A stretch of DNA of 64,000 bases from Raillietiella orientalis (lineage: Eukaryota), in assembly GCA_036172245.1 (NCBI GenBank), contig JAYWIR010000026.1, positions 806,001 through 870,000 on the forward strand. The letters are read 5' to 3'. Position 1 is the first letter of the stretch; each line of letters starts with the position of its first letter. The translations under genes and the position numbers were made by a program. Below, piece by piece: positions 22,971-56,048 of this stretch. The notes under the pieces were generated by a model. That model was given only the letters and a program-made list of their open reading frames with translations. It was not told the DNA's origin and made no database searches.

Positions 22971-23445
22971 TTTTCACCCGGTCAAGCCGGGGCGTTTATT
23001 TAAAAACTAACAGTATTTGCGGTACTAGGCCCCGCTGCGGCCAATAGTTCTATGGAGCTGTCTGGTGGTCAGTGCACAGACCAACATAACACTCCACGTC
23101 AACGGATGGGGTTAGGGAAAAAACAAAAATAAAAAAAAATAAAAAGTAGAAACACTGGTCATTGGGAGGGACGGAAAGGGATCACTGTCCGTTGCGTGGA
23201 GCTTCAATTCTTTGCAGGATGCCGACAAGGTCCTGATACAGATTTCCCAGGTGGGGCCATCGGGATGCTATTCGCAGAAAGCGAGCTGCATACTTCATGG
23301 CATTCCTTCTGTTAACATCCTCTGCTTCGTCGAATCCACTCCAAGCTGCCACAATACCGAGTACGCAGCAGAGAGCTGCTATTACAGCAGCTGGCTGCAG
23401 GGCGTCCCGCACGAAGAGGAGCCGAAAAACGTCTCTGGGAAGTGG
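22971..23445 (-). mobile_element. Family B 3' end
   Basis: RDVFRLLFVRDALQPAA..SRWPHL; terminus AATAAACGCCCCGGCTTGACCGGGTGAAAA. Confidence 0.88.
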
Positions 23446-26457: not shown

Positions 26458-26932
26458 CGTCGAACTGTATAGTTTGCGACTCCTGGCATCGGCTGAAAGG
26501 CCACTACGCAAGAGTGGTCTCCACCGGAACGCCAAAGTAGCTCCCACCCTGTGAGCCTCTCGATTTCTTGGACGTCTTCTCCCCTGAGTGCGTGAACCTC
26601 TTGGAGAAGTGCCATGTCGAAAGGTCGCAGGGTGTCGGCCACGCTACGCCTCTTGCTTTCGCTACTCAGTTCGTTGACATTCCAACAGGCTATACGCAGC
26701 TGCCGGAAAGAGGCCATTCCACGCATCATATTAATGATGGTGGTGGCGATTGTGTTGCCGCTTACTGTTCGGGAGACAGCTGGTCGACGTCCAGCAGATA
26801 GTTTGCGTTTCAGAAACGACCGGAACTTCAGTTCGATCGGAAGATGGGACCGCACGCTTTCCACGGAGGGATCACGCGACCTCGCAAACATCGCCTCTTT
26901 GCTACCCGAGCGCATTTCCTCCTCAGCGTGAG
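26458..26932 (-). mobile_element. Family H-like ORF1 end and endonuclease start
   Basis: WNVN..LLQEVH in ORF 26379..26915; interrupted at TTCGACG. Confidence 0.87.
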
Positions 26933-35181: not shown

Positions 35182-38100
35182 GCACGCATTTTTCCTGGGC
35201 TCCTGAGAGCGAAAACAAAAAAGCAGTTTCCTTGGTTGTGGATGAGCGGCCATTGGAAGACAGCAATGCCTGAAGACGCCGCAGCACCTGCGACGAGGGG
35301 TGTGGGGCCCTGGTTACCCCAATCCATGGAGGTGGGGTCAAGTCCCATCACAAAATCTGCCTCCGCCGCCTCGGCGAAGCCATGGAAGAAAGTAACCGCG
35401 GCGGCGCCGCCGGACGTGCCTGCTGAAGTACACGCCTACTTTGAGGAGACTAACAACTCTGCCCTCCTTTATAAGGTAGGTAATTCATATTCTCCGTTTA
35501 AAACGCGGTGATTCGGCAACGCCATTAGTAGAATGAGTATCACAGATGAGGAGATTTTGTGCTTTTAGGTTCGGAGCGGTGGGCAGTTCTCGGAGCTGAT
35601 CTCCAGAGATCCAGCGCTCCCGAACATACTGCTCCGCACACCCGTTCCTTTTGAAGGACGCAATCTCCTCCCACACACGGTGAATCACACAGCAGTGATC
35701 CACCTTACAGGTACAACTATGCCGATGAGCGAGGAAGTCTTCCGCACCAAAATGAACAAATTCGCGGAGATATACGCGATGTGAAGCAGTTCCAACGCCT
35801 TTACATATCGAGTTGCATTTATTGGGCGACTTGAAGCTCGCGTAACTCTCCGCGAAAGCATCGGAATTCTCTACAAACCCAAATGTCCATTATGCAACGG
35901 GAAGGGTCACACTAGCGTCGTGTTCCGGAAATACGCAGCTCTAAGGCCGAAAACCATTAAAATACAGGGAGAGATGAAGAAGGCGGAAAAGAAAATACAA
36001 CGCGATCTCCAGATAACTTCAGAAGAAGTCGTGCAGAATGACCAGAATTCTCAAAAGGAAACTTATAAGCCTTCTGCGGACGAAAAATGCTGGAAAAGGG
36101 TCATCAATAAAAAATCAAAAGAAGTCCAAAACCAAAACCAAGAAACCCCAACAAATATAATTAAATGGGAACGCGAGCGTTCCGAGGAAACCCGCGAAAG
36201 GCAAAAGAAAATCCCGATCTGCTAGGAGTTAAGGGAACGCCGCGTTACAATTGATCGACCTCCTTCAATCGAGCGTCGATCGGCGAACGAGAAACCCACA
36301 ACCGTCGCCGAAGCCGCGGAACCGACGCAGGAAACCAGCGGCAAGGACAGAAGCAGCAGCGACAGAAGAGCTCTGCGAAAGCTTAGGAAGAAATCGCGGC
36401 CACCTTAATGCAGGCGCCTAAGGCTGCAAAGAAGGCCGTGAGACGCCCAGACGAAACCATAAGATCGGAAAGTTCCGAGTCGGAAACGGAAACTGGATGC
36501 GCTTCCGCTGTCGCCCTCCCGAAGAGGAAGGCGATCCGGAAGTCCCGCAACCCTGTGCAAGTCGTTTTCCCTGAGGCTGAGGTAAAGGAAATGAGTTCGG
36601 GCACGAGGAGGCCATGTCCGCCAGGTCGCGTGATCCCTCCGTGGAAAGCATCGGGTCCGATCTCCCGATCGACCTGAGTCCAGCTGCTGACGTTTCGCCC
36701 CTAGCCGAAACGCCGACAATGCAGCTGGACATCGACCAGCCGTCTCCCGAACAGTAAGCGGCAACAAAATCGCCACCACAAATCATTAGTATGATACGCG
36801 GAATCGCCTCTTGCCGCAAGTTGCGTATAGACTGTTGGAATGTCAACGGGCTGCGTAACGAAGGCAAGAGGCTTTGCGTGGCCGACACCCTGCAACCTTT
36901 CGACATGGCACTTCTCCAAGAGGTACACGCTCTCAGAAAGGACGTTCAGAAGATCGAGAGGCTCACAGGAGGGAGGCAACTTTGGCGATCAAGTTTGGAA
37001 CACTCCCGCGGAGTGGCCTTCCCGCTGAAGCCAGCCGTCTCTAATGTATTGCGCACTGTACAGTTCGACGTTTTCACACGGTTATTCCGGGGCTTTTATT
37101 TAAAAAGGCTTACAGTATTTGAGGTACAAGGCCCCACTGCGGCCAATAGTTCCCTTGTGCTGTCGGCTGGTCGGTACGAAGACCGCCTTGACACTTCAGG
37201 CCAACGGATGGGGTAGGGGGAAAAAACCCCATCACCGTGAACGGCCGCTGGATCTTCCCTGTGAAAGAGGACTGCACCGTCGTGGTACACCTCACGGGAG
37301 TAACACTCCGTATGGACAAAACCAGCGTCCATGAGGAGTTGTCAAAACATTATAGTGTGCACGCGTACTGGGCCAAACCCAATGCCTTCCGAACGTACGG
37401 AAGGCTATCCAGTGTGAAGGCGGAGGCGCGTCGCACTACCAGAGAATGGTGGGCTTCCCCACAAACTAAATATCGGCTAGGAAAAGGTCGATGTTTGGTA
37501 CGTGGGAAAGCCCAGTATTGTGGCCATTGCTATGCTACAGGGCACTTAGAAGAACGGTGCCCCAACATCCAATGCCACTTATGTGTCTATAAGGGCCACA
37601 TCCTCAAGGTGTGCCCAAAAACAGAAATCCCTGACCCACGCGCTGCCAAAAAGGCAAAGGGGAAACGCACGGGAGAGGCGAGTAACCTGAAACAGGTTTA
37701 AAAAAGCCAGATGCCAGTCCCTAAGCGATTCGAGCAAACTTCGGTTAGAGCACACCCGATGAAGCTGGTGATGGCTAAGGCTCGCGGAAGGTACAGCCAA
37801 GAAGAAAACCCTTGAGTCCCGAAAGAAACGCGGTGAAAACAAAAACGCATCTCGAAAAACCGTACCGCGAAAATGTCCGCGCGTGTCCGTTGAAATTAGA
37901 GCGTGAGGAGGCACTCGATGCCGCCACCGGGGGAGCAATCCCCCCCATCGTGTCTGACGAAGCAGCGACGGTCAGTGGCGAACCATCTGGGGAAGCAGGG
38001 GGAGAACCGCGAGCCGCGCTCGACACGCTCGAGGAGGCCGCCTTCCAGGAGGCGGTTGAAGAACTCTCGGCTGAACTGCAAGGCCGCTAGAAGAACTCTC

Positions 38101-38375: not shown

Positions 38376-40627
38376 CCCCTCCTGCTTCGGCCAGGGACGT
38401 TCATTGATCAAACTCTACATGCGTGGTACGAGGCCCCACCACGTCTGGAAACACTGAACCTGCCGGGACACCGGGACGCAGCCCGGCGTGGCACCATCCG
38501 ACAGCGAATGAAGATGTGGAAAAACAAAAGGAAAAATAAAAAAAATATACAAGCAAAATGAAGCTGGAGGGTAGGGATGTTAGCACTGTTCGCTTTGGGG
38601 AGTGCCCTTCCTTCGAAGGAAGCACTCTAGGTCCGTCTGCATGCTTCCCATTTTGGGCCATCTCTCAGCTCTCCGCATAAAGCCTACAGCATACAGGATG
38701 ACTTATCTCTCATCCATGTCCCCACGTTTCTGCAAGTGATGCCTGCAGGGAGCCCGAGGGTCGTCCAGAACCGTTCTCAAAGGGGTCGGAGGGCAGAATA
38801 GTCCACAATCAGGTGGGAGAGCGAATCCCGCTCCCCACACCTGGCACAAGCAGGATCCACAGCACCCTTTATCTAGTGGATGCGGCGTGCGTTGCAGGGA
38901 AGACCACAGTGCAATACCAACAACGCCGACTTTTGCCACTTAATGGGCAGGATCCTAAATTCATTGAATACCGGGGCCACTTCAGCTCATCCCTGGGGAT
39001 GGTGAGCAGCTCGCCTCATCTGAATATTCCACGCGGGTGGACGCTCGAAGTCGTGGAATTGGCCAGCTCGTTGATGGTCCATCCGCTCATATTATTTTCG
39101 GTGCCTTTGATACGGTAAGAGACCTGCCACCATGGTGTCCGGCTTCCGTAAAGCGCCCGCCTAAGTAAGGGCCTCGCCGTGACGAGGGGTGTCCTTTACG
39201 CCCACTACCAACTCGCGGAGAACTTCAGAATTTCCCGCAGAGTGCGGCAGCAGTAATTGCTGTTTCAACGGCAGTTCCCATTATCTTCGCTTCACAGGTT
39301 TATCTTCCACCATGTGCCAGCAGTCTCCTTTAGCCAGGCGGAGGAGATCGCAGGGGCTGCAAGCCATCCACCATTTCTCCATGGCCAAGCTTGTCATGCG
39401 CCCAAGCAGTAGGCCGCATCTTCTGATCTTCCGGCCGGGGCACAGAAGAAAAGATGCTAGTCCCTCGCACCTGTAAACACGGCTTGCGAGGAGGCGGGCC
39501 GAAGCCCAACAAGGGTTGCACCATAGCTTCGCTGCGGGGGAGAGGGTGCGCCATCGCAGCTGTTTCTCCACGCGCTCCAGAGTCAGGATGCCAAGACCGC
39601 CGTCCCGACGCGGAGCGCACAAGTACTTCAGAGAGACTCAGGCCTCCCCTTGCCCCAAAGGGCGATGCAAAGGAGGTCCTTCCGACGCTCCTTGCATTTT
39701 ACGGGGTCGGGGCAAACAAAATGCAAGGGGCGGAGGATGGAAGCTGCGAAAGCGTTCCAAAGCGCGGCCCGTTCAGGCAAGTGAAACTTTCCTTCCAAGA
39801 ACGGGCTGATCGTCGTCTCGACTTTTTGGAGGCAGCTAGACCACGCTTCCGCAGGGGAATAGTCCCCCAGCCGCACAGCAAAGTAATTCAAGCACCTGGC
39901 CGTGGGGATCCCCAAACGTACCCAGTCCTGCTGCCATGCCCACGCCGCACCTCTTGGAACAACCGACGATTCCGCCCTGTAAACCTGTAGCCCGGTCTCG
40001 CGGCTAAACAGATCGAAGAAATCCCCGACCGCCTTCGCCGGGGTCGACATGGGCAACAAGAAGAGTAGATCGTCGGCATACGCTGCTACGGAGGGCGTGC
40101 CGGGGCACGACCTCGGCAAGGGGCCAAAGTAACCCTATGCGCTCTGAGCACCAACTCAAAGTAGGTGCCAAACAGCAGGGGACTGAGGCTGTCTCCCCGC
40201 CTTATGCCCCGCAGCACCGATACGCCATACACCTTTTGTTCACTGAAAGAGATGGTAATAATCGCGTTTCGCCAGGAAGAGCGCAAGTAGGAAATCAAGG
40301 AGGGTGGGAAGACCATGCAGCCCTGAAGCTTTAAGAGGAGTTCTTGGTGAACGCAGTCGAACGTCTTATGGAGATAGACTGCGAGCGCTAAGGCCCCCTT
40401 CCCCACCCGGGGATCCCTTCCCAGCCCGGCTGGCGGCCACTAAGTGGGGTTGCCGATTTTTCCATTCCCTTACATCTCTCTCCTCTGCAGGTGCACCCAA
40501 GTGCTTGCGAAGAAGAGGTGGGCATCCTTACTCCGCCCGGGAGCAGCATAATTCGGCTCCGGGCTAATTATGGATTCTGCCAACTGCCCCAGACGCGAAG
40601 CCCATAGCCCTGCTAGCAACTTGGCGT
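38376..40627 (-). mobile_element. Degenerate family C/E-like ORF2 (RT to 3' end)
   Basis: AKLLAGLWASRLG, LAVYLHKTFD, RGDSLSP, YADD. Counterpart of 1141-3136 but without the D insertion. Confidence 0.9.
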
Positions 40628-42895
40628 GCGGACGTGTTTTTTTCCCGCTCCGCTGCACCTGTTGTGAAGCGTTCTTTTTCGTCAGTGTGGAGCATCTGTG
40701 GTGTACAATGGCAGAAATGCCTGAAGACACCGCGATGAACACCGTAAGGGGAGAGGCTTGTTCCTCTCCCCAATTCATAGAGGTGGGGGCAATCGCCCCT
40801 TCGGAGGCAAGGGCAATTGCTCCCTTGAAAAAAAGGGCAACCGCCCCGTCGGTAACGAGGGCTGCCGCTCCTTGGAAAAGGAGGCAACCGCCCTTGTGCA
40901 AAAGGGTGCATCCGCCTCCTGGAAAAAGGGTACAAACGCCACACTGGAAAAAGGCGCAACCGCCCCTATGAAAAAGGGGACAATCGCACCCGTGTATGCG
41001 TCTTCTCCATCAACGAAGACGTGGTGCGCTGTGACTGCAGCGCCATCCCCTGAAGCCATGGCAGAACAACGTGCCTACCGGGATCAAGGAAATAAGCCAT
41101 CCTTGATCTATAAGGTAGACAATTGTATTTGTGGGGAACACCGCTAGTAACTTTGAGAGAGAGTTACAGCGGTTGAATGTGAACGAGGAAGACCTGGAAG
41201 GCCTCTCCGTCATGAGTGGGGGTCAGAGGGTGTAGCTCACTTGCAAAGATGCAAGCCTAGCTCAGCGCCTGCTGAACACCCCCATCACACTGGAAGGCCG
41301 ATAGGTCTTCCCTGTAACAGAGGATCGCTCGGTTGTAGCGCATCTCATCGCTGTAACTCTCAGTATGAGCAAAGCTGGTGTGCAGAAAGAGCTGACGAAA
41401 TATGGTACGGTTCACGCTCTGTGTACCAAGCCTAACGTCTTCCAAACATATAGAAAACTGTTCAGTGCCATGGCTGCAGCGCAAGTGACCGTACACGAAA
41501 ACGGTGGGCTACCCCACAAACTAGTAGTGGACAACGAGACGGTCGACGTCTGGTACGTGAGCAACCTCAGGTACTGTGGAAACTGTGATGCGACAGGGCA
41601 CCTGAAAAAACGGTGCCCTCACATACAGTGCTTTCACTGCAAGGAGAAGGGCCACCTCCGGAAAATGTGCCTAAAGCAAGAACCTGCAGCGGCCTCTGCC
41701 TTCAAAAAAGGTAAGGAGAAACGCTTGGAGAAAACAAGCAAGCCCACAGAAGCAAAGGAAAGGCCAAGCAAAAAGCCAGAGTCGGAATGCTCCTAGCAAA
41801 CGGCGGTCGAGAAAACTTTCGACGACGCTGGTGAGAAGGAAGTCTGGCGGACAGCGAAGCCGAAAATCAAAAAAATCCGAAAAACCGACAGCGGAACCCG
41901 CGACATCCCCTTTAAATGGGAGACAACGCCGCGCGTTGCTCCGCGAATGTTCGGTCGCCTTGGAGAGTGTGGAGGTCCCCGAGACCGCCACCGGGGGAGA
42001 TATCCCCCGCCTCGTTGTCGACGAAGTCGCGACCGCGAAAGGCGAACAGAGGAGGAGCCGAGCGACGCGCTCGCTGCAATCGAGGACTCTGCCTCCCAGC
42101 AGGCGGCGGAAGAGCTCGCCGCGGTACTTGCGTAAACTGACAACGGCGGGCGAAAGGACTTGCGAAGGCCGGCCGCGAGGAAGGCATCTCCGACAGGTGA
42201 CCAGGACCCGGATGCCGGAAGTGCGTCCTCCTCCGCGGAAGCGCCTCCGAAGAAGATTGGACGGAAGTCCTAGCATCCGAAGAGGCGCATCCCGACGAAG
42301 AATGAGGGGGACGCACCGGAAGCCGAGGGAGAAGCTGGCCGCGTGGGAACGGAAGAAGGGATTTTCCCACCCTCCGCTACCGAGCAGCTGGCTACCCCCA
42401 TGGAGGAGGGGGAGAAAGTAAGTGATTGCCGCCCCCTTCCAACGGTTGAACCTGCTGAGGAGATAACCATAGAGGAGGAAGAGCAGACAGTCGACAACCG
42501 CTCCCCTTCGCAGTCCAGCGCAGCCGACGTATCGGGATCCATCGAAGAGGAAGAGCAGGTGCGTGAAACCCGTTCCCTTCCACCGTTGCGGTCCGCCAAG
42601 GAATCGGCCCCCATGGAGGAGGGAGAACCGGTGCGCGGTGATCCCGTTCCTCCATCCGTCCCGCCCAACCAGGTGGCGGGAGCTCCATTGCAACTTTCCC
42701 AGGACTAACACCTGGGCTCGCTTGTCGTCGTCGATTACGCTTGGCCTGTTGGAACGTCAAGGGGCTGCGCGACGACGGCAACACATGTGACATGGCCGCC
42801 ATCCTGCGTGAATTCGACCTGGCGCTCCTGCAGGACATCCACGTGATCACCGCGGAGAACGACCAGGAGATCAAGAGGATCGCAGGGGGGTCTGA
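40628..42895 (+). mobile_element. Family F: 5' UTR, decayed ORF1, start of endonuclease
   Basis: GGACGTGTTTTTTT 5' end; CGNCDATGH..CFHCKEKGH; TAACA at 42706-42710, then PGLACRRRLRLACWNV. Confidence 0.92.
40780..40994 (+). repeat. About 9 degenerate 24-nt tandem repeats in ORF1 (EKGATAPx)
   Basis: Units such as GAAAAAGGCGCAACCGCCCCTATG and AAAAAGGGGACAATCGCACCCGTG. Confidence 0.85.
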
Positions 42896-43780
42896 TTATC
42901 ACCCTGGTGTACCGTAGCGTTTATTAAAAACTATCCGGGAACAGAGTTCCTGGACAAACGAAATACAAGAGAGTAAGAGGGTGGGATCCCCGACAAGCAG
43001 GTCGGTATCCCAAAAGTCCGAAAGCAAACCACGGAGTGGACCAAAGGTTGGCGCACAGGGCCAACACTCGAAGCTGCACCTGCAGCTCGATTGTCTCCAG
43101 CTTCAGGATGCCTAAGTCAGCATCCCAACGCGGAGCCGCCAAGTCTTTCAGGCGGATCCTGCACCTCGCAGGACCCCACAGAGCGTTCCTCAACAGGCTG
43201 TGCGCCTGGAGCTTCGCCGAGTAGGGGAGCAAGCAAACAAAAAACAGGGGGCGCAAGAGGGGGGCAACGAAGGTGTTCCATATCGCGGCCCGCTCCGACA
43301 GGAGGAACCTGCCATGCTGGAACGGGCTCAGCACACTCCTAGCCTTCCGAAGGCGGTTTGACCACACTTCCACTGGGCTGATGTTCCCCAGCGGAACGCT
43401 TAGATATTGGGTGGACGACGCGGTAGGGATCCCCAGGCGGATCCAGTCGGACTGCCCCTCCCACGCCGTACCAATGGGTACGACCACGCTCTTGCTCCTG
43501 TTTACGCTCATGCGCGCTCCCCGGCGGATCAGCTCGAAGAAATCCTCAAGACAGGACGCCGGGGTGGTCATATGTAAAAGAAGAACCAGGTCGTCAGCAT
43601 AGGCTGCCACGGACGGCGTTCCAGGACAAAACTCGGCAGGTTGGCCACCGTCAGCCTGTACGCCCTCAGCACCAACTCAAAGAAGATGCTGAAGAGCAAC
43701 GGGCTTAAACTGTCGCCCTGCCTGATGCCCCGCCACACCGGCACTCCGTACACGTGGCAGCCGCTGAAAGAGATGGAAAT
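42896..43780 (-). mobile_element. RT fragment plus 3' UTR of an A-related family (I), internally deleted
   Basis: QGDSLSP, YADD, APRWDADLG; terminus AATAAACGCTACGGTACACCAGGGTGATAA. Confidence 0.85.
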
Positions 43781-44214
43781 GAGCGGACCTTCGCCGAATA
43801 CGGGGGGCGGGCGATCCAAGGAAAACTGCTCGCAGAACTCTCGGACCGAGGCCTTTGAAAGGTCCCAATCCGGAAGACTCTGGAGCGTGATGCTACTCAG
43901 GAATTCGCGAAGGCGTTCGTTCGCACCTGAGAGTCGCGTCCAGTCCCCCGGCGGACGCCACTCCCTGAATGGCGGTCCCTTGTTGCGAGCCCGCATCTCG
44001 AAAATTAGCCGGGAATGGTCCGACAGCGTCGAGGCAATCTTCCCCCGTTTGCCGACCCGTGAACACAAGTCAGCGTCGAGGATGACGTGGTCAATGCTGC
44101 GGACCATTCCCCTCTCACCCGTTAACAAGTTGCGCGCACGCATGGCGGCGCACAACTCATTCATCGCGTTCACTTGTGTTTCAGGATCACCTGTTAGCAG
44201 GCAGAGATTGAAAT
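43781..44214 (-). mobile_element. Family E endonuclease C-terminal fragment (host of copy A3)
   Basis: FNLCLLTGDPETQVNAMNELC..SIDH..SDH, homologous to 61955-62385. Confidence 0.9.
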
Positions 44215-46417
44215 TTTTCACCCGGTCACGCCGGGGCGTTTATTGAAAATAAATCGGTCAAAGACAATGTCTTTAACCAAAGAAACGACAGGGAGAAAAG
44301 AGAAGTTACCGGCACACAGGTCTGGTTAACAAACCGCTTCCAACAACACTGAGGGAGTAGAGGGATAACAAACAAAAATCAAAATCTCGAGGGAGGGGTA
44401 ACATGTCTTTGGTGAAGCTCCGTACTCACGGGAATTCCAATAGAGAGCACCTAAAATGTTCCGGAGCCTAATAGGGCGAAAGTGGAAAGAAAAAAAAAAA
44501 AACATTTGAAGGGGGCGAGGGAAAAGGTTCACCGGGTGCGCTGTTGGGTATCGTCTGTAAACCGTCGACGTACGCTAGCGAGATCCCTTTTCGTATCCTC
44601 GGTCAATTGAGGCCATCTGGCGGCTCCTTCCATATAGAAAGATGCTTTGCTGATCACCTCTTGGTACTGCTTGGTGATTATCAGCGCCTGGCGGACGGAA
44701 ACTATCGCGCGTATGCAACCGATGATTGCAATCCTTGCGCTTAGTGACAGCCCGCTCGGCGTGAAGAATCGTCGCAGCAAATCTCTTGCGGTGTCCACGG
44801 GATGCATTAGTGCTGTTGCCAGCCTACGCCACAGTCCTTGTAGGACACCGCAGTCCAGAAGTAGGCGCGGAATCGACTCGGTCGATCCGCACCGAACGCA
44901 GTTCGCAGACGCAAGTCCCCCGGAGTCACGATGCCAACGCTCGTTGCACTGAAAACCCCAGTGAACGAAAAGCAGCACGGCTTGTTTCCAAGCAAGAAGG
45001 AGCAGCGAACTGTCGACACACTGTGGAGGGACTACAAGTTCTTCGGGGGTGACACCAAGTTCTTCTGCCCACCGGAGGAGTCCCTTTGCAGTAACACGAG
45101 GAGTGGCGGCGTCCGCCAGCTCACTCGTCTTCCAGGCGCCAAGGAGTTTGGTTTTTCCCACTATCGTGCAGGAAACCTCCCACCTCGCCGGTTGGTAACT
45201 GTCGTTTCTTGCCTCGAGGGCAGACAGCGCTGCGGCAAGAGGCGTGGCAGCCAGGGTAGAAAACTTCACCTCGTCCTGCAAAACTTCTTATAAGGATCAT
45301 GGAGAAAATTGGCGCAGGGGGCGAAGATCTTCAGGGCGTTTTCCTTGGAACGCCGCCCAGGATTCAACACACTCCTGCCAACAAGCTTCAAAGTTCATTG
45401 GGCGGCAGGAGATCCACGAGTAAGCTTCCAGAAGTGCGGTCAACTGCCGCAATGGAAACCCGAAACCCCGCTTCCTGTATTTAGTGCTTCGCAAAAGCGA
45501 GAGAAATCCTCCGCTGCCGGCGCATCTCCGCAGGAGAATGCGGGCTGGCACACACAGGGGGGATGTCCATAGCTGGGCACACAGTGCCAGCAGTCGGAAC
45601 TGCACCTGCAGTCCGATTCGCTCCATTGTCAGGATACCCAAACCAGCATCCCGACGCGGAGCAACCAAATCTTTAAGGCGGATCCTAAATCTCGCCGGAC
45701 CCTAGAGAACGTTCCTGAGCAGGCGTTTAGACCGCTGTTTCGCCCCATGGGGGGGTCCAAAACAAAAAACCAGGGACGGAAGAGGGGGGCCACAAAGGTG
45801 TTCCAAATAGTCGCCCGTTCCTGCAAGGTGAACTTGCCGTTAATGAACGGGCTGATGGCCAACTCTGCTTTCTAAAGACAGTCCGCCCACGCTTCGGCTG
45901 CGCCGACAGCGCCCAACGGAACGCCAAGGTACTTAAAGTACCCGCCCGTGGGGATCCTCAGACGGATAAAGTCGGACTGCCCCTCCCACGACGCACCCAC
46001 AGGAACGACCACGCTCTCCTCTCTGTTTACGCTCACGCCCGCTCCCCGACGAATCAGGTCGAAGAAATCCTCGACACTAGACGCCGGGGTGGACATGGGG
46101 AGCAGAAGAAGCAGGTCATCAGCGTAGGCGGCCACGGCAGGCGTACCCGGGGAGGAGCATGGCAAGTGAGACAGGGTCAGCCTGCACGCTCTCAGCACCA
46201 ACTCAAAGAAGATGCTAAAGAGCAACGGGCTCAAGCTGCCGCCCTGTGGGATGCCCCTACGCACGGGAATACCGTACACGCGGCAGCCGCTGAAAGTGAT
46301 GCAGGTTAGTGCGTGGCACCAGCAGGCGCGCAAATACAGCAGGAGTTCTGCCGGGAACCCAAGGCGTTCCATAAGCTCCAAGAGCAGCTTCTGGTTTACG
46401 CAGTCGAACGCCTTGTG
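44215..46417 (-). mobile_element. Family A copy A3, 3' part (RT to 3' end), degenerate
   Basis: Highly similar to 53838-56039 with a diverged 3' UTR; interrupted by D at HKAFD. Confidence 0.95.
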
Positions 46418-47823
46418 CGCTCTAGGGTGGACGTGTTTTCTCGGTGCTCCTCGTGCCAGGAAGTCTCCCCCAGTGCAAGCGTCGTGTGGTTCTGTGGTCG
46501 ATCAGCGAGCGATGCCTGACGCGACCACCAGGAATGGCCAGGGGGCAGCGGCAACGCCGCCCCCAGAGGCGATGGAGAGCCAGGGGGCGGCGGCAACGTC
46601 GCCCCCGGAGGCGATGGAGGTGGGGGCATCCACCCCCACAGAATCGGTCCCCGCTGCAGCGCGGGCGTGGAGCGCCGTTGTGTCGGCGCCATCGCCTGCA
46701 GCCGCGGTGGAATTGTCGGCCTATGTGGAGGAGGGGTACAACCCCTCATTGTTCTACAAGGTAGGCAATTTATATTCCTTAGAGAGCGCGCGCGCCTTCT
46801 CGAAGGGCATGCGCGCTCTCGATGTGAAAGAGGAGGAGCTTAGCGCTATGACCATCCGCAGCGGGGGTCAGTACGTTGAGGTCATCTGCAAACATGCAGA
46901 GCTGGCCCAACGACTGCTTAAAACCCCCGTTGTGATGGGGACGCGCAGGCTTCTCCCCACTACGGCGGACCGCAGCATGGTGGTCCACCTGTTAGGCGTG
47001 ACCGCGCGAATGCGCAAAGAACAGGTTCGCGCCGCTTTGGAACAGTTCGGAACGGTCCACGCGCAGTGGACGAAAGTAAGTCCTTTCGAGGACTACACGG
47101 GGCTGCAACACGGCCTCACTGCTGCGCGCGTGACCGTTCGGGAGGGCTGCACTCTTCCCCACAAACTGGTGGTCGAAGGCGAAACCGTCGACCTCTGGTA
47201 TGTGGGGAAGCCGAAATACTGCGGCTTCTGCAATACGTCGGGCCACCTCAAAAAGAGGTGTCCCAATGTGCAGTGCCAAGTATGCGGCACAATGGGCCAC
47301 ACGAGGAAGGTGTGCCCAAAAGCAGCAGTGCGGGTGGTTTCCAAGAGAAACCTTAAAAAACGCGCCCGGCTTCTGCAAAAAAGGCTGGCGGCGAAAGCTG
47401 CTGCGAAGGCTGTGCCCCCCGCGCCCAAGACCCAGGCCGCACCCGAGACCCCGCCGACAAACGCCGAAAAAGTTGAGGGAGCCGGCCAGGAGACTGGGTG
47501 GCAAGTGGCAACGGCCAAAAAATCAAAGAAGGAGAGGAGGATGGAAAAAAAAATCGCCTACCAACAGAAGAAGAAAGAGCAGGGTAGCGCGATAATTAAA
47601 GAGTGCAGCGTCGTTGTCGAACGCGTTCTCGATGTTGCCGAACGCTGCCGGAAAGAACTCGCCGCTACCGACAACCTCCCCTCTGTTGACACAGTCAACA
47701 GCGAGGGGAGCGAGCCGGCGGCGGCGTCCGTCATCGACACCACCATCGATGACGTAGCCTTCGCGCGAGCCGCGGAGGAGCTGGCAGCCTCCTTGCAGCC
47801 AGAACCCTCCACGGCCAGTAGGA
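46418..47823 (+). mobile_element. Family D copy: 5' UTR and ORF1 (ATG 46512), interrupted by E
   Basis: GGACGTGTTTT, 42-nt duplicated QGAAATxPPEAME unit, two CCHC knuckles. Confidence 0.93.
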
Positions 47824-50133
47824 GGACGTGTTTTTCCTTCACTCCCCAAAGAGTAGTAGGAAAGCGCTTTTTCTTCTGTGTGGTGTTTTGTGTACATCGT
47901 CGGTGTCCAATGGCCACGACGCCAGAGGACACCGCCATGGAGGTGGGAGTGGGGGAGGCTAGTTCGCCCCCACAGCCTACTGGAGCAGGGGCAGCCGCCC
48001 CGGAATCATCCCCGGCCACGCCGAGGACATGGAGCGCCATGGTGGCCGCGCCCAGCGCAGAAGCCATAGCGGAGATGGCCGCATACAAGGCCTCCGGGTA
48101 CAAGCCATCGCTTGTCTACCAGGTAGGCAACTTGTTCGACGGCCGGACAGCGCGCGCCTTCAGCAAAGCGTTGAAGGACGCGACTGTTAATGAGAAGGAT
48201 CTGGACGGCCTCTCCGTCCTCAGCGGCGGGCAGCGGGTCGAGGTGGTCTGCAAAGATGTCACCTTGGCTCACCGCCTAATCCATGCGCCGCTGAACGTAG
48301 ACGGCCGCAAGATCCTGCCAGTATCAATGGACCGCTCCGTGGTGGTCCACATGACTGGCATCACCAGCCGCATGACGCGGTCAGCGGTTGGTGAGGAATC
48401 GCGAAAGTACGGTGAGGTGCACGCACTGTGGCCGAAACCCTCCATTTTCGACGGCTTCGATAGCCTTTTTGGTGGGCAGGCTGCAGCGCGGGTCACCGTA
48501 CGGGAGAATTGTGGGCTTCCCCACAAACTACAGGTGGCGCAAGAAAACGTCGACCTGTGGTATGTAGGGAAGCCCCGGTATTGCGGGCATTGTGATACCG
48601 TGGGACACCTACGTAAAAGGTGTCTCAATATACAATGCCATTTGTGCGGGGAGCGGGGCCACGTTCGGCGCGTGTGCCCCAAACGCCCCACCCCGGTTCC
48701 CCCTGCCGCGAAAAAAGCGCAGGGGAAACGCGCTTCAAAGGTCTCTAGACCTAAAGTAGAAAAGGGCCAGCACAAGCCGCCAACACCTCAACCTCCGGAG
48801 CGTAAGGCGGAGGATAAACCTTCTGAAACGGTGGAAGGCGAAGAGGGATGGCAGCTTGTAGAGGCCAGAAAGCCGAGGAAACTCCCACCCGCGGAGAGCA
48901 AAGAGCGCAAGACGGCCGGCCGGTAAGCCGAAGAAACCCGGTCGGCGCTCTAAGACCATGCGGGAGTGTACGGTAGCACTGGAACGAATCGTCGTTCCCG
49001 AGATTGCCACCCGGAGCGTCGATCCTCCCCTTGCCGTTTCCGCTGCGCCCGAGGCTCGCGACAGCGAACCCTCTGTTTACACAGAGGGTGAGCCGCGCGA
49101 CATAGCGGCGGTCGAAGCCGCGGACGCCGCGTTCGCGCAAGCGGCGGAGGAGCTCGCGGTCACGCTGGCCGAGCGTGAGAACCCCTCGCGCAAGGCCGTG
49201 CGAAGGCCGGCTCCGGCGAAGAAGGCCCCCACAGGTGAGTTAGACCTGGGGGCCGGAAGCACATCCTCCTCCTCGGAGGCACCCCCCAGGAAGTGGGGAC
49301 GCAAGTCCCAGAAGCCCAGGAGGCGCCTCCCCTCCACCAGCGAGGAGGAGAAGACGGAAGCCGTCGCCAGCGTGGGAAATTCGGAGGAGGAATTCCCACG
49401 CTCGGAAGTCGTCGATGCGGCCACCCCCATGGAGGAGGGTGAACAGGGGGGTGAAGTCCCCCCTGCAGGCGCCGACCCTGAACATCCCGCCCCCATGGAG
49501 GAGGGCGAACAGGTAGGCGCGACTCCACCTGCGGGTGATCCGGCCGACGCGCCGGCACCGATGGAGGAGGGGGACCAGGTGCCTTCAGCACCTGACCCCC
49601 CTCCTCCACCTAGCGTCCCGCCCCAGCAGGTGGCGGACGCCGCACTGCCATCTTCCCAGGAGTAACACCTGGGCTCGCCAGTCGCCGTCGGATTCGCGCG
49701 GCCTGTTGGAATGTCAACGGGCTGCGCGACGACGGTAACAGGCGAGATACAGCCGACACCCTGCGTGAGCTCGACCTGGCCCTGCTGCAGGAGATCCACG
49801 TGATCACCGCGGCAGACGTCCAGGAGATCGAGACGATCGCGGGAGGTCGGCTGTACTGGCAATGCGGCATCCGCAACACCTGCGGGGTCGCGTTCTTCGT
49901 GAAGCCGGCCATCGACGCTGCCGTGAAGAACGTGCGCTTCGATGACGACGGTCGGGTCGGTCAGCTGACTCTCGGCTGGTCGGACTCGATCGATCTGATC
50001 GTCACGAATGTGTACGCCCCAACCGGTCAAAAGGGATACAGCAACCGTACCAGGCTGCTTGAATCCTTGAAGCGCGACTGGCTGGCGAAAACGAGCGTGC
50101 GGAAGGCTCACCTGATAGCGGGAGATTTCAATC
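47824..50133 (+). mobile_element. Family E 5' part: ORF1 (47910-49665, one frameshift near 48920) and endonuclease up to GDFN
   Basis: GGACGTGTTTTT, CCHC knuckles, PMEEG repeats, WNVNG, LLQEIH, NVYAP, AGDFN. Confidence 0.95.
50125..50133 (+). repeat. Target-site duplication ATTTCAATC (also 56040-56048, 61955-61963; minus strand 44206-44214)
   Basis: Exact 9-mer at each family A boundary. Confidence 0.95.
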
Positions 50134-50211
50134 GAGTGCGGACGTGTTTTTCTTCGCTCTCGTCTCCGTGCTTTCATCCGCTTCATCTTGGCGTCGTACA
50201 TTTTGACGACG

Positions 50212-52134
50212 ATGTCGACCCAACTTGAAGCTACTGAAGCTGGAGGAACAGCATCCGGATCTGCAATCGCGGAACCGACGGCCGCCTCCACTTCGTCTTT
50301 CTCGCCAATGGACAGGAGATTTGCTGACGTTGCTGCCACAGCAGCCGTCAAAGGGAAACCACTCGACGAGTCGGAGTTGCGGGCATACGTAGCCCAAGGC
50401 TATAGACCTGCTCTCCGATATAAGGTGAGTGGTTTTCTTTCTGCGCGCGACGGGAATCAGTTCAACGATGAACTGACGCGTGTTGGCGTGCGGGAGGAGG
50501 ACCTTCTCGCCATTATGCCCGTAAAAGACATGGGCTATTTCAAGGTGCGTTGCAAAGACGCTGCACTTGTGCAACGTTTGCTGCGCACCCCGTTGTCGAT
50601 CCGTGGCCAGAAGGTCTTCCCGGCCGCCATGGACGACTAATTTGTGGTGGAGATTTTCGACATCGAGTCGGAAATCTCCGATACTGATATTCGGAACGCG
50701 TGGGCAGAATTCGCCACAGTCCATACGCTGTGGAGGGTGCGTAGCAACCTCAAGGACTTCCCGTCCATACACAGCGGAGTCGCTGGAGTCCGGCTTACAA
50801 TGCCGGACCGCCGTCTGCTGCCCACGAAACTACAGGTGAAAGACACGGTCGTTCACCTGTGGTTCGTGGGCAAAGTAAAAACGTGCGAGCAATGCGGGAA
50901 GGAGGGGCATTGTTTGGATAAATGCCCCTCTGGAAAATGCCGTTATTGCAAACTATCCGGGCACCAATTGAAAAATTGCCCGGATCTTTTGCGAAAAAAG
51001 GCAGCCGCGGAGCTCCATTTTAAAAAACAAAGCGCGGATAAAAAGAAAAAATCTGCGAAAAAGCTGGAGACCCCACGGCAGAAATTCGGTAAAAACGCGA
51101 GGCGGAATGTCGCCCCAAAGCAGCAGGAAACCTCGCACGCGAAGCCCTGCGCACCCCCTCTCGCGGCAGGGGAGCCGCAAAAGAAAGGGTGCGGGGAATC
51201 CGGGGCAATGGTAAGTCCCCCTAGGCGCAATAGCTGTCCTTCCCAAGCACGCCCGGCTCTTTCGGAGTTCGAGCAACCGGCGGGGACGTCAATGGACAAC
51301 GGCGGTAAGGACACTTCCAGTACCGTCAGATCCATTCCCTCACCTCCTGCAGTGGCTGAGAAGCCCAAATCGGGTAAGAAGGGTTGTGCCGTGTCGACTT
51401 CGAAAGTTGGCAAAAAAAAATCCGCGTCGCGATCCAACACCGCGAAGGCGGAGAAGAATCTCACGCCGTCGCAGTCAGAGAGCAAGCTCTCGACTGGCGC
51501 GGATGCCATGCCAAAGAAGGGAGTAAAAGCCCTTCCGAAGGCAGCGTCCATGACGAGCGTGTCGAACCCATCGAAAGTGCTCCCGTTTAAAGACGCGGAT
51601 GGCTTCAAAGATGGCAATGGAGCACAATCTCCATTTACGGCGCCACGCGAAGTGAGGAACCGTAATGAAGTTAAGAAGACTTCAGCAAAGGTCCCTCGTG
51701 CAACTGCGCGTGAGCACGCTGAAAACGCGCGCGCCGGGAAAGCAGCCGTCACCAAAAGCGATGCCCTGGTGACGGAAAACGAAACCAGGACAGCTGTCAA
51801 TCCAGCAGAACCTGTCACTGCTTCGCGGAAGGCCGAAATCCGATCGAACATGCGCCGGTCGGACTCCGAAATGGATGCCGTTCCGATCACCGAGACGAGG
51901 ACAACTCGTTCGAAAGCGTGTGCGCGCCGATCAAAAGTAGGCAGCCAGGCAACGCTCGCCGCGAAGCAACGCGAAGTCTCCACGAAACCCGACGGGGTTC
52001 AGCCTGGCGTGGAGGCATTACATGCATGCAGCACGACAGAGGACGGTGGCGACCGTCCCCTCCAGCCAGTCGTGCTGCTCGCCGTCTGCTCGCCGGATAA
52101 AGCGAGCAAAAAGCCGCCACCTTCCCAGCAGTAA
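50212..52134 (+). pseudogene. A1 ORF1 (two CCHC knuckles) with a single nonsense codon
   Basis: TAA at 50638-50640 where A2 has TCA; CEQCGKEGH..CRYCKLSGH. Confidence 0.92.
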
Positions 52135-55100
52135 TGCGGGGAATCGCGTCTTCTCGTCGTCTGTCCGTAACGTGTTGGAACGTGAACGGAATACAGAACG
52201 ACGAGAAGAGGCGATTAGTAGCCAACGCCCTGCGCCCCTTCGACCTCGCGCTCCTGCAGGAGATTCACGTAATCTCCGACGAGCAGTCAGCCGAAATCGA
52301 GGATCGCGCAGGCGGAACGCTACATTGGCGGTGCGGCGGCGCACACACGTGCGGCGTCGCGTTCCTCGTAAGAGTAAAAATGGCGGAAGCGGTGCGTAGT
52401 GTTCGTTTCGATGACAACGGACGGATAGGCCAGCTTGTCATCAAGTGGTCCGAGTCCATCGATCTCGTCGTTACGAACGTCTACGCGCCGAGTGGCTCTC
52501 GCTACCTCGAAGAAAGAGTAGCTTTCTTTGGTGAGGTGCAGAGCCAGTGGCTCAACAACTCCGGTTTCCAAGTGGCGCACCTCGTCGCTGGGGACTTCAA
52601 CGTCCGCCTGCTCTCCGACGATTGGAGCCGCCCGAGGGAGCGCGCGCTGCCCATCGAGATGTGCGCGTCCGTGCACGCCGCCAACTTGATGGTCAGCGAA
52701 CCTGGAATGGAAAGATCGCTCGATCACGTTTTCCTCGATGAAAACCTGCATTCGCGTGTGGGCAGGAGAGGAAGATTGTTGACTAGGCTTTCTGACCACC
52801 ACAGGTTGGAGTTTGAGATCCTTCCGCCAGGCAGGGGGCCTCCGTTGCAAAACTGGAGGATGCAGGCGGATTGGCTTAGCCAACCGGAGGCTGCGGAGCA
52901 TCTACGTAGATACCTCCGAGGCTTTGCCATTCAAGAACTTGCGGACTGGGACGATCTCAAAAGATCTGTCCGCGAGTTCTGCTGCCAATTCCCCTTGCAC
53001 CGGCTTCCACGCGGTTTCGGAGAGGGCGTGGCCAACAGTAGAGACTTTCTGCAGGCCCGCACGTTTTCGAGACGCGCGGATGTCGGGCGTCTCGCGGAGT
53101 ACAAGGCGAGGGCCGAGCGCCAGGTCTGGGAGTCCGGAGCAGCATGCCTGTTGGACGACAAGGGCCAGGAATGTTCGGCCCCAGCCGAAGTACGCCGCAT
53201 TGTGGGACGCTACTACTCCTCGCTCTACGCGGATTCCCCGACGGAGGATATTCTTTCTGAGATACTCCTGTCTCAGGATGCTCGTGTTGTCGGCGAGGAG
53301 GAACGCGAACGTCTCGACGAGCCCTTCACGGCGGATGAATTTTCGTCCGCCATCGCTGGGCTGAAGAGACGAAAGGCGCCAGGCGAGGATGGGCTCCCTG
53401 CAGAGTTTTATCAGTGCTTTGCAGTGGAGCTCATTCCCTTGATGCTTAAACTCGCGAAGCTGATGAGTGAATCCGGGAATGTCCCTGATTCCTTCCGCTC
53501 AGCGAAGGTGCGTCTCCTGCCGAAAGGCGGAGACTTGCGCCAACTTAACAACTGGCGTCCGATCACCTTGGTGAACTCGGACGTCAAGTTGTTTTCCAAA
53601 CTGTGGGTCGCGCGGTTAGGAAGAATCGCGGAATCTGTGGTGAGCCCGGAACAAACCTACGCGGTTCCGGGACGATCCATGGAGGCGAACATCCTTTTCG
53701 CGCGTACATGGATGCAGCTGCAGGAAGTTGTGGCGCAGCAAAGCCAGGCTGCTGCGAACGTCACTGCCGCAGGCAAAAAGAACAGGCGCCGACGGCAGGA
53801 GGGAACGCCAGGTGCCTTGGCGGTCGCGGTCGATCTCCACAAGGCGTTCGACTGCGTAAACCAGAAGCTGCTTTTGGAGCTTATGGAACGCCTTGGGTTC
53901 CCGGCGCAACTCCTGCTGTATTGGCGCGCGTGCTGGCGCCACGCGCTAACCTGCATCACTTTTAGCGGCTGCCGCGTGTATGGTATTCCCGTTCGTAGGG
54001 GCATCCGACAGGGCGACAGCTTAAGCCCGTTGCTCTTCAGCATCTTCTTTGAGTTGGTGCTAAGAGCATACAGGCTGACGCTGTCTCACTTGCCAAGCTC
54101 CTGCCCGGGAACGCCTGCCGTGGCCGCCTACGCTGATGACCTGCTTCTTCTGCTTCCCATGTCCACCCCGGCGTCCAGTGTCGAGGATTTCTTCGACCTG
54201 ATTCGTCGGGGAGCGGGCGTGAGCGTGAACAGAGAGAAGAGCGTGGTCGTTCCTGTGGGTACGTCGTGGGAGGGGCAGTCCGACTGGATCCGCCTGGGGA
54301 TCCCCACGGGCGGGTACTTTAAGTACCTTGGCGTTCCGTTGGGCGCTTTCGGCGCAGCCGAAGCGTGGGCGGACTGTCTTCAGAAAGCAGAGTTGGCCAT
54401 CAGCCCGTTCTTTAACGGCAAGTTTACCTTGCAGGAACGGGCGACTATTTGGAACACCTTTGTGGCCCCTCTCCTCCGTCCCCTGTTTTTTGTTTTGGAC
54501 CCCCCCTATGCGGCAAAACAGCGGGCTAAGCGCCTGCTCAGGAACGCTCTCTGGGGTCCGGCGAGATCCAGGATCCGCCTTAAAGATTTGTCAGCTCCGC
54601 GTCGGGATGCTGGTTTGGGTATCCTGACAATGGAGCGAATCGGACTGCAGGTGCAGTTCCGACTGCTGGCACTGTGTGCCCAGCTATGGACATCCCCCCT
54701 GTGTGTGCCAGCTCGCATTCTCTTGCGGAGATGCGCCGGCAGCGGAGGATTTCTCTCGCTTTTGCCGGGCACTCAATACAGGAAGCGGGGTTTCGGGTTT
54801 CCATTGCGGCAGTTGACCGCACTTCTGGAAGCACACTCTTGGATCTCCTGCCGCCCAATGAACTTTGAAGCTTGGCGGCAGGAGTCTGTTGAATCCTGGG
54901 CGGCGTTCCAAGGAATACGCCCTGAAGATCTTCGCCCCCTGCGCCCATTTTTTCCACGATCCTTGGAAGAAGTACTGCAGGACGAGGTGAAGTTTTCTAC
55001 CCTGGCTGCCACGCCTCTTGCCGCAGCGCTGTCTGCCCTCAGGGCAAGAAACGACAGTTACCAACCGGCGAGGTGGGAGGTTTCCTGCACGATAGCGGGA

Positions 55101-55727
55101 AGAACCAAACTCCTTGGCACCTGGAAGACAAGTGAGTTGGCGGACGCCGCCACTCCTCGTGTTACTGCAAAGGGACTCCTCCGGTGGGCAGAAGAACTTG
55201 CTGTCATCCCCGAAGAACTTGTGGTCCCTCCACAGTGTATGGACAGTTCGCTGCTTCCCCTTGCTTGGAAACAAGCCGTGCTGCTTTTCGTTCACTGGGG
55301 TTTTCAGTGCAACGAGCGTTGGCATCGTGACTCCGGGGGACTTGCGTCTGCGAACTGCGTTCGGTGCGGATCGAGGGAGTCGATTCCGCACCTACTTCTG
55401 GACTGCGGTGTCCTACAAGGACTGTGGCGTAGGCTGGCAACAGCACTATTGCATCCCGTGGACACCGCAAGAGACTTGCTGCGACGATTCTTCACGCCGA
55501 GCGGGCTTTCACTAAGAGCAAGGATTGCAACCATCGGTTGCATACGCGCGATAGTTTCCGTCCGCCAGGCGTTGGTAATCAACGGACAGCACCAAGAGGT
55601 AATCAGCAAAGCATCCTTCTACATGGGAGCATCCGCTAGATGGCCTCATTTGACAGAGGAGACAAAGAGGAATCTCGCCGCAATACACCGCCGGTTTACA
55701 CACCCTCATCAGCGGCCAACCCGGTGA
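52134..55727 (+). CDS. A1 ORF2: intact APE endonuclease / reverse transcriptase / CCHC protein, 1197 aa
   Basis: WNVNG, LQE, NVYAP, GDFN, LDH, SDH; KAPGEDG, WRPITL, DLHKAFD, QGDSLSP, YADD, KYLG; CVRC..HLLLDC. Confidence 0.98.
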   Translation: MRGIASSRRLSVTCWNVNGIQNDEKRRLVANALRPFDLALLQEIHVISDEQSAEIEDRAGGTLHWRCGGAHTCGVAFLVRVKMAEAVRSVRFDDNGRIGQLVIKWSESIDLVVTNVYAPSGSRYLEERVAFFGEVQSQWLNNSGFQVAHLVAGDFNVRLLSDDWSRPRERALPIEMCASVHAANLMVSEPGMERSLDHVFLDENLHSRVGRRGRLLTRLSDHHRLEFEILPPGRGPPLQNWRMQADWLSQPEAAEHLRRYLRGFAIQELADWDDLKRSVREFCCQFPLHRLPRGFGEGVANSRDFLQARTFSRRADVGRLAEYKARAERQVWESGAACLLDDKGQECSAPAEVRRIVGRYYSSLYADSPTEDILSEILLSQDARVVGEEERERLDEPFTADEFSSAIAGLKRRKAPGEDGLPAEFYQCFAVELIPLMLKLAKLMSESGNVPDSFRSAKVRLLPKGGDLRQLNNWRPITLVNSDVKLFSKLWVARLGRIAESVVSPEQTYAVPGRSMEANILFARTWMQLQEVVAQQSQAAANVTAAGKKNRRRRQEGTPGALAVAVDLHKAFDCVNQKLLLELMERLGFPAQLLLYWRACWRHALTCITFSGCRVYGIPVRRGIRQGDSLSPLLFSIFFELVLRAYRLTLSHLPSSCPGTPAVAAYADDLLLLLPMSTPASSVEDFFDLIRRGAGVSVNREKSVVVPVGTSWEGQSDWIRLGIPTGGYFKYLGVPLGAFGAAEAWADCLQKAELAISPFFNGKFTLQERATIWNTFVAPLLRPLFFVLDPPYAAKQRAKRLLRNALWGPARSRIRLKDLSAPRRDAGLGILTMERIGLQVQFRLLALCAQLWTSPLCVPARILLRRCAGSGGFLSLLPGTQYRKRGFGFPLRQLTALLEAHSWISCRPMNFEAWRQESVESWAAFQGIRPEDLRPLRPFFPRSLEEVLQDEVKFSTLAATPLAAALSALRARNDSYQPARWEVSCTIAGRTKLLGTWKTSELADAATPRVTAKGLLRWAEELAVIPEELVVPPQCMDSSLLPLAWKQAVLLFVHWGFQCNERWHRDSGGLASANCVRCGSRESIPHLLLDCGVLQGLWRRLATALLHPVDTARDLLRRFFTPSGLSLRARIATIGCIRAIVSVRQALVINGQHQEVISKASFYMGASARWPHLTEETKRNLAAIHRRFTHPHQRPTR

Positions 55728-56048
55728 TCATTGCCCTACCCTCCATAAACTAAATTTGTATTTTCTTTTACACCCGCGTCCCCATAGGCTCCGGAACATT
55801 TGAGGTGCTCATCGTTTAAATCCCCGTGAGTACGGAGCCTAACCAAAAACCCTTTTCCCTTCCCTCCAGTTTTTGATTTTTGTTTGTTTCCCCTCATTCC
55901 CCCCACGCTGCGAGCGGTTTGTTTACCAGGCCTGCGTGCCGGTAATTTTTCTATGTTCTCCGTCGTTCTCTTGGTTGGGGACATTGTCCCTGACCAGTTT
56001 ATTATTATTAATAAACGCCCCGGCGTGACCGGGTGATAAATTTCAATC

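Follow-up and report, generated by a model that had tools for sequence, protein, structure and literature searches.

A nest of LINEs in the analyzed window

We analyzed 64,000 nucleotides (nt) of Raillietiella orientalis DNA (assembly GCA_036172245.1, contig JAYWIR010000026.1, positions 806,001 to 870,000 of the forward strand), which we call the window and to which all copy counts refer. The window is a GC-rich nest of long interspersed nuclear elements (LINEs; 55-64% GC) with stretches of 46-49% GC between them, and it is built of LINE-in-LINE joints. Our subject is one of these elements, D-a, whose 5' end adjoins reverse transcriptase (RT) codons of other LINEs. The nest was mapped by six-frame comparison, with the first and second open reading frames (ORF1 and ORF2) of the element A3 and the ORF of 'D' as queries, and with Pfam. 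What an initial annotation had termed family D is the full-length 5' end, consisting of 5' untranslated region (UTR) and ORF1, of the L1-type LINE D-a. The features that bear on its position are as follows (APE, apurinic/apyrimidinic endonuclease; aa, amino acid).

46418 to 46511, plus strand: 5'UTR of D-a copy 1, 94 nt; its first base is the joint, and GGACGTGTTTT stands at 46429-46439
46512 to 47821, plus strand: ORF1 of D-a copy 1, with ATG at 46512 and CCHC knuckles; open until the D-b 5' end at about 47815-47823
1 to 1140, minus strand: D-a copy 2, with 5'UTR at 1140-1047 and ORF1 at 1046-3; it exits the window at the left end
44215 to 46417, minus strand: host A1, A-family ORF2 from H-K-A-F-D (aa 580) to the stop, plus 3'UTR; cut at the joint
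1141 to 3137, plus strand: host C1, C-family ORF2 from H-K-A-F-D to the 3' end; cut at the joint
47822 to 50133, plus strand: D-b, a second LINE in the same orientation, with 5'UTR, ORF1 at 47911-48926 and the APE domain of ORF2 up to its G-D-F-N codons

The two D-a copies are identical at 1086 of 1140 positions (95.3%), with 54 substitutions, no gap and no stop, and their differences are clustered, with 7 in nt 300-800 and 35 in nt 800-1140. In each copy a leader of 94 nt precedes an intact ORF1, and both carry the 5'-terminal motif GGACGTGTTTT, which has six matches in the window against 1.42 expected. All six lie within about 12 nt of LINE 5' ends (the two D-a copies, D-b, D2 at 40630, A3 and A2), and the one at 47824, inside 'D', marks the 5' end of D-b. 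Because the 5' ends of A3 and A2 are fixed by a target-site duplication (TSD) and share this motif, both D-a copies start at a true 5' end.

D-b has its APE domain at 49638-50132, picks up again at 61955 and runs to 64000; its frame 49614-50228 matches Exo_endo_phos (6e-10), and the remainder of its ORF2 lies at 61954-63996. In ORF1, zf-CCHC scored 18.8 bits, below the cut-off of 20.8, and two C-x2-C-x4-H-x4-C strings are visible per ORF1. ORF2 with APE and RT places D-a's relatives in the APE-type L1 group, the ORF2 of D-a itself lying beyond the window. Judged by the APE, RT and CCHC-bearing ORF1 of these relatives, D-a is a putative active-type L1-group LINE. A 918-aa ORF at 46170-48926, the longest of the region, is an artefact in which two ORF1s are read through: it comprises 82 antisense-RT codons, the D-a leader, the stop-less D-a ORF1, the D-b leader and the D-b ORF1. 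Metagenome scans gave no match to the D-a ORF1 protein or to a 21-base pattern of the D-a 5' end, and a protein search with D-a ORF1 and the upstream frame gave no hit at E <= 1e-10. We rejected the possibility, suggested by MAFFT placement, that the D-a 5'UTR is a diverged antisense RT, as only about 7/9 bases match.

D-a adjoins two host families at the same base of an RT motif

We found the 33-base junction GTCGAACGCCTTGTG/YGCTCYAGGGTGGACGTG (here and below, a slash within a sequence marks the joint) twice in the window, at 46403-46435 (plus strand) and 1123-1155 (minus strand). The search used the 33-mer with Y at two variable places and allowed at most two mismatches; the chance expectation was 0, and the 33-mer occurred in 0/100 dinucleotide-preserving shuffles. 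On the plus strand, 46403-46435 reads GTCGAACGCCTTGTG/CGCTCTAGGGTGGACGTG, with the joint at 46417/46418; on the minus strand, 1155-1123 reads GTCGAACGCCTTGTG/TGCTCCAGGGTGGACGTG, with the joint at 1141/1140. In RT sense, both hosts begin at the joint with CACAAGGCGTTCGAC (H-K-A-F-D) and continue with A-type and C-type sequence, respectively. Thus in both cases (2/2) the D-a 5' end stands at the identical base in a different host family, antisense to the host ORF2 and with 5' sides head-to-head. The same-base joint had been reported in the initial annotation, and direct reading of the sequence bears it out.

The hosts were said there to belong to two different families, and they do. A1 clusters with A2 and A3, sharing 93-96% identity with A2 over ORF2; C1 groups with a C copy at 40370, to which it is about 93% identical over 1141-2054. 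A1 and C1 are identical at 191/299 positions over 300 nt and at 555/899 over 900 nt (62-64%). What is retained of each host is the C-terminal two thirds of ORF2. The ORF2 of A3 (1208 aa) matches Exo_endo_phos (2e-12) and RVT_1 (2.4e-21), and Pfam gave no match to zf-RVT in it at E <= 0.01. The nearest database proteins, 22-29% identical, are L1-type with RVT_1, Exo_endo_phos and, in most, zf-RVT.

The truncated A1 frame begins at position 76 of the 205 of the RVT_1 profile, and that of the intact A3 spans 2-203. Therefore, the joint removes the upstream part of the RT domain, which we take to hold the first catalytic Asp (RT motif A). These RVT_1 matches of A1 and A3 also uphold the earlier identification of the motif as DxxKAFD of RT. 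The RT motif CAYAAGRCGTTCGAC occurs at seven sites in the window, of which two are filled (1141 and 46417). The five others are uninterrupted and preceded by GAT or TAT and then CTC or CTT (D/Y-L):

40356 to 40370, minus strand: empty RT-motif site in the C copy, which continues to 40630 and there adjoins the D2 5' end
53838 to 53852, plus strand: empty RT-motif site in A3
59753 to 59767, plus strand: empty RT-motif site in A2
63193 to 63207, plus strand: empty RT-motif site in the ORF2 of D-b itself
17109 to 17123, plus strand: empty RT-motif site in a further D-b-like ORF2

The first of these had been described as an empty homologous copy, and the motif is indeed uninterrupted there. Separate D-a copies thus stand at the same nucleotide of their target (n = 2), and 5/7 target sites are uninterrupted. 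Our favoured reading, to which we give somewhat better than even weight, is that D-a integrates site-specifically, in antisense, into the RT motif-A codons of resident LINEs. A spliceosomal intron boundary was rejected as an explanation of the joints: there is no AG/GT at the joint, and D-a has its own ORF1 on the other strand.

Chimeric joins made by the assembly in a repeat-rich region are a very improbable source of the two joints. The region is almost all nested repeats with a long inverted duplication, and a public-read run sharing 40% of sampled words, of which 69 short contigs were placed on 45600-47800, offers no bridge over 46417/46418 among its listed contigs. These contigs are short and mostly less than 95% alike to the window (3/69 at >=99%), and hence are no test of the joint or of this assembly. 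A loose end behind 46417 in them, GAGATCGACTGCG, is the uninterrupted RT site. The two joints stand at the same position and have diverged by 4.7% on the D-a side and by 36-38% on the host side, which is unlike a mis-join.

Evidence for one insertion event or two

The initial annotation had read the two joints as apparently independent events. Divergence at the two loci is unequal, the D-a copies being 95.3% identical and their hosts 62-64%. Moreover, of 48 coding differences between the D-a copies 24 are synonymous, against 12.5±3.0 expected (P=0.0004; 0.0006 in the other direction), when the changes are permuted with their type, base and CpG context kept constant. The neutral control, ORF2 of A3 versus A2, gave 13/47 synonymous against 12.8 (P=0.53), and therefore the method does not create the D-a signal; Nei-Gojobori ratios were 0.32 for D-a and 0.80 for the control. 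The D-a differences carry a signature of purifying selection, so that most of their divergence arose in functional elements, an indication of two retrotransposition events: divergence under purifying selection implies different functional source elements, each needing its own 5' joint. A plain ratio of nonsynonymous to synonymous rates was discarded as a test of independence, since C1 versus the C copy likewise gave 0.32-0.46, and the permutation test with its control took its place.

Several observations weigh against this interpretation. C1 versus the C copy at 40370 is also rich in synonymous differences (19/45 against 12.6, P=0.024), and therefore the selection test is less clean than the A3/A2 control implies; either the test is slightly too permissive or the first 900 nt of C1 derive from a C insertion of their own. 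A frameshift common to C1 and the C copy was considered and dropped, as their 1-nt deletions differ relative to outgroups (1388 and 1406). Both D-a loci are identical over the 17 host nt at the joint, and no in-register identity between A1 and C1 is longer than this. C1 reads CAC, as A-type copies do, against CAT in 3/3 C/D-type relatives (the C copy at 40370 and both D-b-like ones); CAC in C1 together with the 17-nt identity is what a crossover product would show. The C1 joint also coincides with the end of an inverted duplication of 13.7 kb (1141-14871 versus 40370-26641, 11.8-kb spacer, 99.1% identical). Recombination or gene conversion has evidently been active in this region, and A1 and the C copy at 40370 stand in direct orientation, separated by 6 kb: if a mirror copy of this pair lost the DNA between the two by a crossover in the 17-mer, the exact C1 joint would result. 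Other LINE joints lie elsewhere (D2 at RT aa ~496; the 3' ends of G, H and the LINE x17109), and therefore site fidelity is specific to the family rather than general. Finally, n = 2, and the window holds neither a D-a 3' end nor a TSD nor a displaced 5' half of the host. As the view is one-sided, covering the 5' joint only, we infer the insertion; of the earlier claim that D inserted in antisense, the antisense joint at a shared base is direct observation.

The arms of the duplication are mosaic, which we count in favour of two events. Of their 125 differences, 66 lie in 1141-2054, 26 in 3262-3742 and 33 in the other ~12.3 kb (~0.3%), and in both divergent patches each arm carries derived states of its own (28 versus 21 and 19 versus 11). 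This suggests an older palindrome that has been mostly homogenised, or recombination with other copies. Such patchiness, which shows recombination or conversion, also lends some weight to an account in which a single original joint of D-a and RT was copied at the DNA level, for example as the outer parts of an old palindrome, and acquired its second host by a microhomology deletion or crossover, with A1 and the C copy, in direct orientation 6 kb apart, exchanging within CACAAGGCGTTCGACTG. Under this account one would expect what is seen in the two loci being mirror images around a duplication that ends exactly at 1141 and 40370, in their identical first 17 host bases, and in the CAC that C1 has in common with the A family against CAT in 3/3 C/D-type copies. 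The exchange, however, would need to have hit the final 17 nt of a ~2.2-kb homology with no more than 62-64% identity, in which there are other in-register runs, against the C copy, of 15, 14, 13 and 12 nt. The D-a differences are also unlike those of DNA-level duplicates, with no indel in 1140 nt and the synonymous excess (P=0.0004; control P=0.53), and the sites of families F and A, described below, recur with only 6-9 common bases and unequal divergence of insert and host, which is beyond recombination. We therefore consider DNA-level copying unlikely, although it is the strongest of the rival accounts. As to independence, unequal divergence and the selection signature speak for the earlier claim of two events, and a crossover in the shared CACAAGGCGTTCGAC would fit the 17-nt identity and the CAC in C1; overall, that reading of the D insertion is partly supported.

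Families F and A also occupy fixed sites in conserved ORF2 motifs

Two other families of the same nest, F and A, use fixed sites in conserved motifs of ORF2 as well. Family F lies at the R-F-D/D codons of the APE domain of three hosts:

22964 to 22997, plus strand: end of host a ORF2 in TTCGAC (APE R-F-D/D, aa 104) and antisense F 3' end; joint at 22969 (plus strand)
4415 to 4448, plus strand: F 3' end and host b (minus strand) at a TTCGAC site; joint at 4443 (minus strand), with a twin at 37064-37097 in the inverted duplication
26430 to 26464, plus strand: F 3' end and host c (minus strand) at a TTCGAC site; joint at 26459 (minus strand)

Each interrupted host fragment consists of the ORF2 N-terminus and runs directly into a LINE 3' end in reverse complement (…GGGTGAAAAC), and the site is uninterrupted in four homologues (A3, A2, D-b and K), where it reads TTCGAT/GAC. 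Host and insert have diverged unequally, with identities of 55% (host) and 82% (F) between loci a and b, 57% and 76% between a and c, and 82% and 71% between b and c. The loci have only the 6 nt TTCGAC at the joint in common, and therefore recombination is not a credible source. The geometry of the F joint is that of target-primed reverse transcription, in which the 3'-OH of the host sense strand is extended by antisense cDNA. Priming of family G at a GTTCGAC motif was considered and rejected, since host K is without that motif.

Family A lies at the G-D-F-N codons of the APE domain of D-type ORF2s:

50134 to 61954, plus strand: A3 and A2, tandem full-length A elements in the G-D-F-N codons of D-b, with ATTTCAATC flanks
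44206 to 44214, minus strand: ATTTCAATC beside the A1 3' end, with D-type ORF2 beyond it from aa 165; A1 thus shares the G-D-F-N site of A2 and A3

One copy of the 9-bp ATTTCAATC precedes A3, a second separates A3 from A2 and a third follows A2 (50125-50133, 56040-56048 and 61955-61963), so that 3/3 A copies are at ATTTCAATC in G-D-F-N codons of D-type ORF2. Identity between A1 and A2 is 93-96% over ORF2 but falls to 86-92% in the flank and to 71-80% in the 3'UTR, and 55 of 130 differences between A1 and A3 are synonymous against 37.9 expected (P=0.0007). From these comparisons the A copies appear to be separate insertions at one site. A3 and A2, at 5906 bp each, are arranged head-to-tail and 97.6% identical; of their ORF1 differences 22/46 are synonymous (P=0.003), and the synonymous rate is about 3x higher in ORF1 than in ORF2. 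Either the site was struck twice or ORF1 was converted.

Other joints and features of the nest

By reading of the map, the nested joints appear to be mostly antisense to their host, some being duplicates of each other. Antisense joints are those of F in hosts a, b and c, J in F, C in J, D-a in C1 and A1, D2 in C, x17109 and the host a element in K, G in a D-a-like copy, and H in D2; the few sense joints are A in D-type and D-b in D-a. The D2 5' end, GCGGACGTGTTTTTTT, adjoins the antisense C copy head-to-head at 40620-40640, at RT aa ~496 (…AACTTGGCGT/; n=1).

Head-to-head pairs of this kind recall the inversions made by L1 twin priming, in which two LINE segments likewise stand head-to-head with their 5' sides together. 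In twin priming both segments belong to one element and the position of their joint varies; at the D-a joints, by contrast, the partners are of different families (D-a versus A or C) and the joint is identical in both loci, so that neither one element nor a variable joint is found. A related integration, in which an A or C cDNA and a D-a cDNA are each primed on one strand of a single break and then joined 3' end to 3' end, so that D-a would not have entered the RT gene at all, might be proposed from the recurrence of such pairs (C with D2 at 40630, J with F at ~4285 and ~25900, G with x17109 at ~16580, and K with the host a element at 20678), from the lack of a 3' part of D-a copy 1 inside the window, and from the GTG microhomology that a D-a RNA beginning with GTG would offer, such a start being suggested by the 5' ends of A and D2. 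It does not explain, however, why two events with different host families should share one base, and the other head-to-head joints are all at different positions. The missing 3' part of D-a is more simply due to the interrupting D-b 5' end, and the original C element was 260 bp longer, as the C copy at 40370 reveals. We consider this origin of the joints quite unlikely.

The LINE 3' ends of several families share AAACGCCCCGG-N5-CCGGGTGA(A/T)AA, with a 5-bp stem, a 5-nt loop and no poly(A). The pattern has 8 matches against 0.17 expected, with sites at 56013-56039, 61928-61954, 44215-44241, 22970-22997, 4415-4442, 15276-15302 and 42896-42922. Judged by its sequence, it is probably the RT recognition hairpin of a 'stringent' LINE group. 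A D-a-like fragment at 14876-15276 ends in …GCGTCGTCGT (15263-15276, plus strand) beside an antisense G 3' end, and element K (minus strand) starts with GCGTCGTTGT (20665-20678, plus strand) beside an antisense LINE 5' end at 20679. The joints at 15276 and 20678 resemble the opposite borders of a single antisense insertion with a TSD of 10 bp. The two host halves are now oppositely oriented, and therefore an inversion has probably separated these joints. A 690-bp inverted repeat (7930-8615 versus 12002-11330, 78.5% identical) lies in a low-GC, non-LINE stretch; no Pfam family was found for 12 ORFs in the low-GC stretch 8918-14774. This inverted-repeat stretch may be another kind of mobile element.

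A putative mechanism of D-a integration

If D-a does integrate site-specifically, its target for target-primed reverse transcription would be …GAT CTC/CAY AAG GCG TTC GAC… in LINE copies of any family, and its endonuclease would act on a duplex carrying GTCGATCTCCACAAGGCGTTCGACTG. The endonuclease would nick the RT-sense strand ~10-15 nt downstream of the joint. A candidate for the nick is the position just after TTCGAC, the priming hexamer of F, which lies 10-15 nt downstream on the same strand (CACAAGGCGTTCGAC/TG, the slash here marking the nick). The 3'-OH of the nick would prime cDNA synthesis, the second strand would be cut at CTTGTG/GAGATC, and the finished cDNA would be joined there. 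The predicted TSD is ~10-15 bp long (15 bp with the TTCGAC nick) and starts with CACAAGGCG. Homing predicts that most full-length D-a 5' ends stand behind …GAACGCCTTRTG, and that D-a 3' ends are followed by a repeat of CACAAGGCG… and then by GAGATCGAC…, the upstream RT half in antisense. Speculatively, pairing of the 3' end of a read-through RNA with the nicked target could aid site fidelity. Each such insertion would split the RT domain of the host. Since every LINE has this conserved target motif, such elements would be expected to accumulate in nested islands of LINEs.

Extended to the other families, the fixed sites raise the tentative possibility, to which we give clearly less weight than to homing by D-a, of a guild of LINEs that hunt LINEs, each family homing base-precisely to different catalytic-motif codons of ORF2 and thereby striking whichever family has kept the motif. 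The targets in this tentative scheme would be RT motif A for D-a (D-L/H-K-A-F-D, antisense), APE R-F-D/D for F (antisense) and APE G-D-F-N for A (sense).

Relation to known target-specific and nested LINEs

Target-specific LINEs of the APE type are established, with transposons among their targets (PMC4640811). In the Tx1 and R1 groups, the targets include rRNA, snRNA and tRNA genes, microsatellites, telomeric repeats and transposons. D-a resembles these groups as an L1-group LINE with APE and in its base-precise, recurrent joints in a multicopy, dispensable target. Similarly, the tandem A3-A2 pair with a TSD between the units would be expected from reuse of a regenerated site. The target of D-a differs, being the protein-coding RT motif A of LINEs, entered in antisense across families that are 62-64% identical. 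This comparison is by target behaviour, the nearest proteins to the LINEs of the window being only 22-29% identical. Like R2 and R1 in 28S ribosomal DNA (rDNA), which survive by homing to one conserved multicopy site and disrupting it (PMC4640811), D-a would disrupt its target; it differs from R2 in endonuclease type and from both in target, no rDNA being involved here.

Nesting of L1-type LINEs in their own copies is on record for Zepp (PMC8226300), and Zepp clusters are GC-rich islands (PMC3446292), according to the accessible parts of these papers, in which the cause of Zepp-like self-nesting into centromere-like islands is left unexplained. The window resembles the nests of Zepp and ZeppL, L1-type LINEs of green algae at putative centromeres, in its LINE-in-LINE arrangement and in its GC peaks over LINEs. 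Zepp arrays, in contrast, are mostly 3' ends with frequent 5' truncation, whereas LINEs of the window have full-length 5' ends, and here several distinct families occur, with no poly(A) tails and with fixed sites in conserved ORF2 motifs. In the accessible parts of the literature searched, outside the primary Zepp papers, there is no description of homing to RT or APE motif codons.

On our favoured reading, D-a would be a target-specific LINE with a novel target and one case of a broader pattern in the nest. Known targets of site-specific LINEs are rDNA, small RNA genes, telomeres, microsatellites and one DNA transposon family. If our reading is true, a LINE that targets catalytic-motif codons of LINEs would be a simple, sequence-level mechanism for nesting, and a transposon-on-transposon parasitism that inactivates the polymerase of the host element. 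Should the guild of mutually homing families also prove true, mutual homing, rather than chromatin targeting, would build nested LINE islands, in an arms race in which an element disables the enzymes of its competitors via a target that can never disappear.

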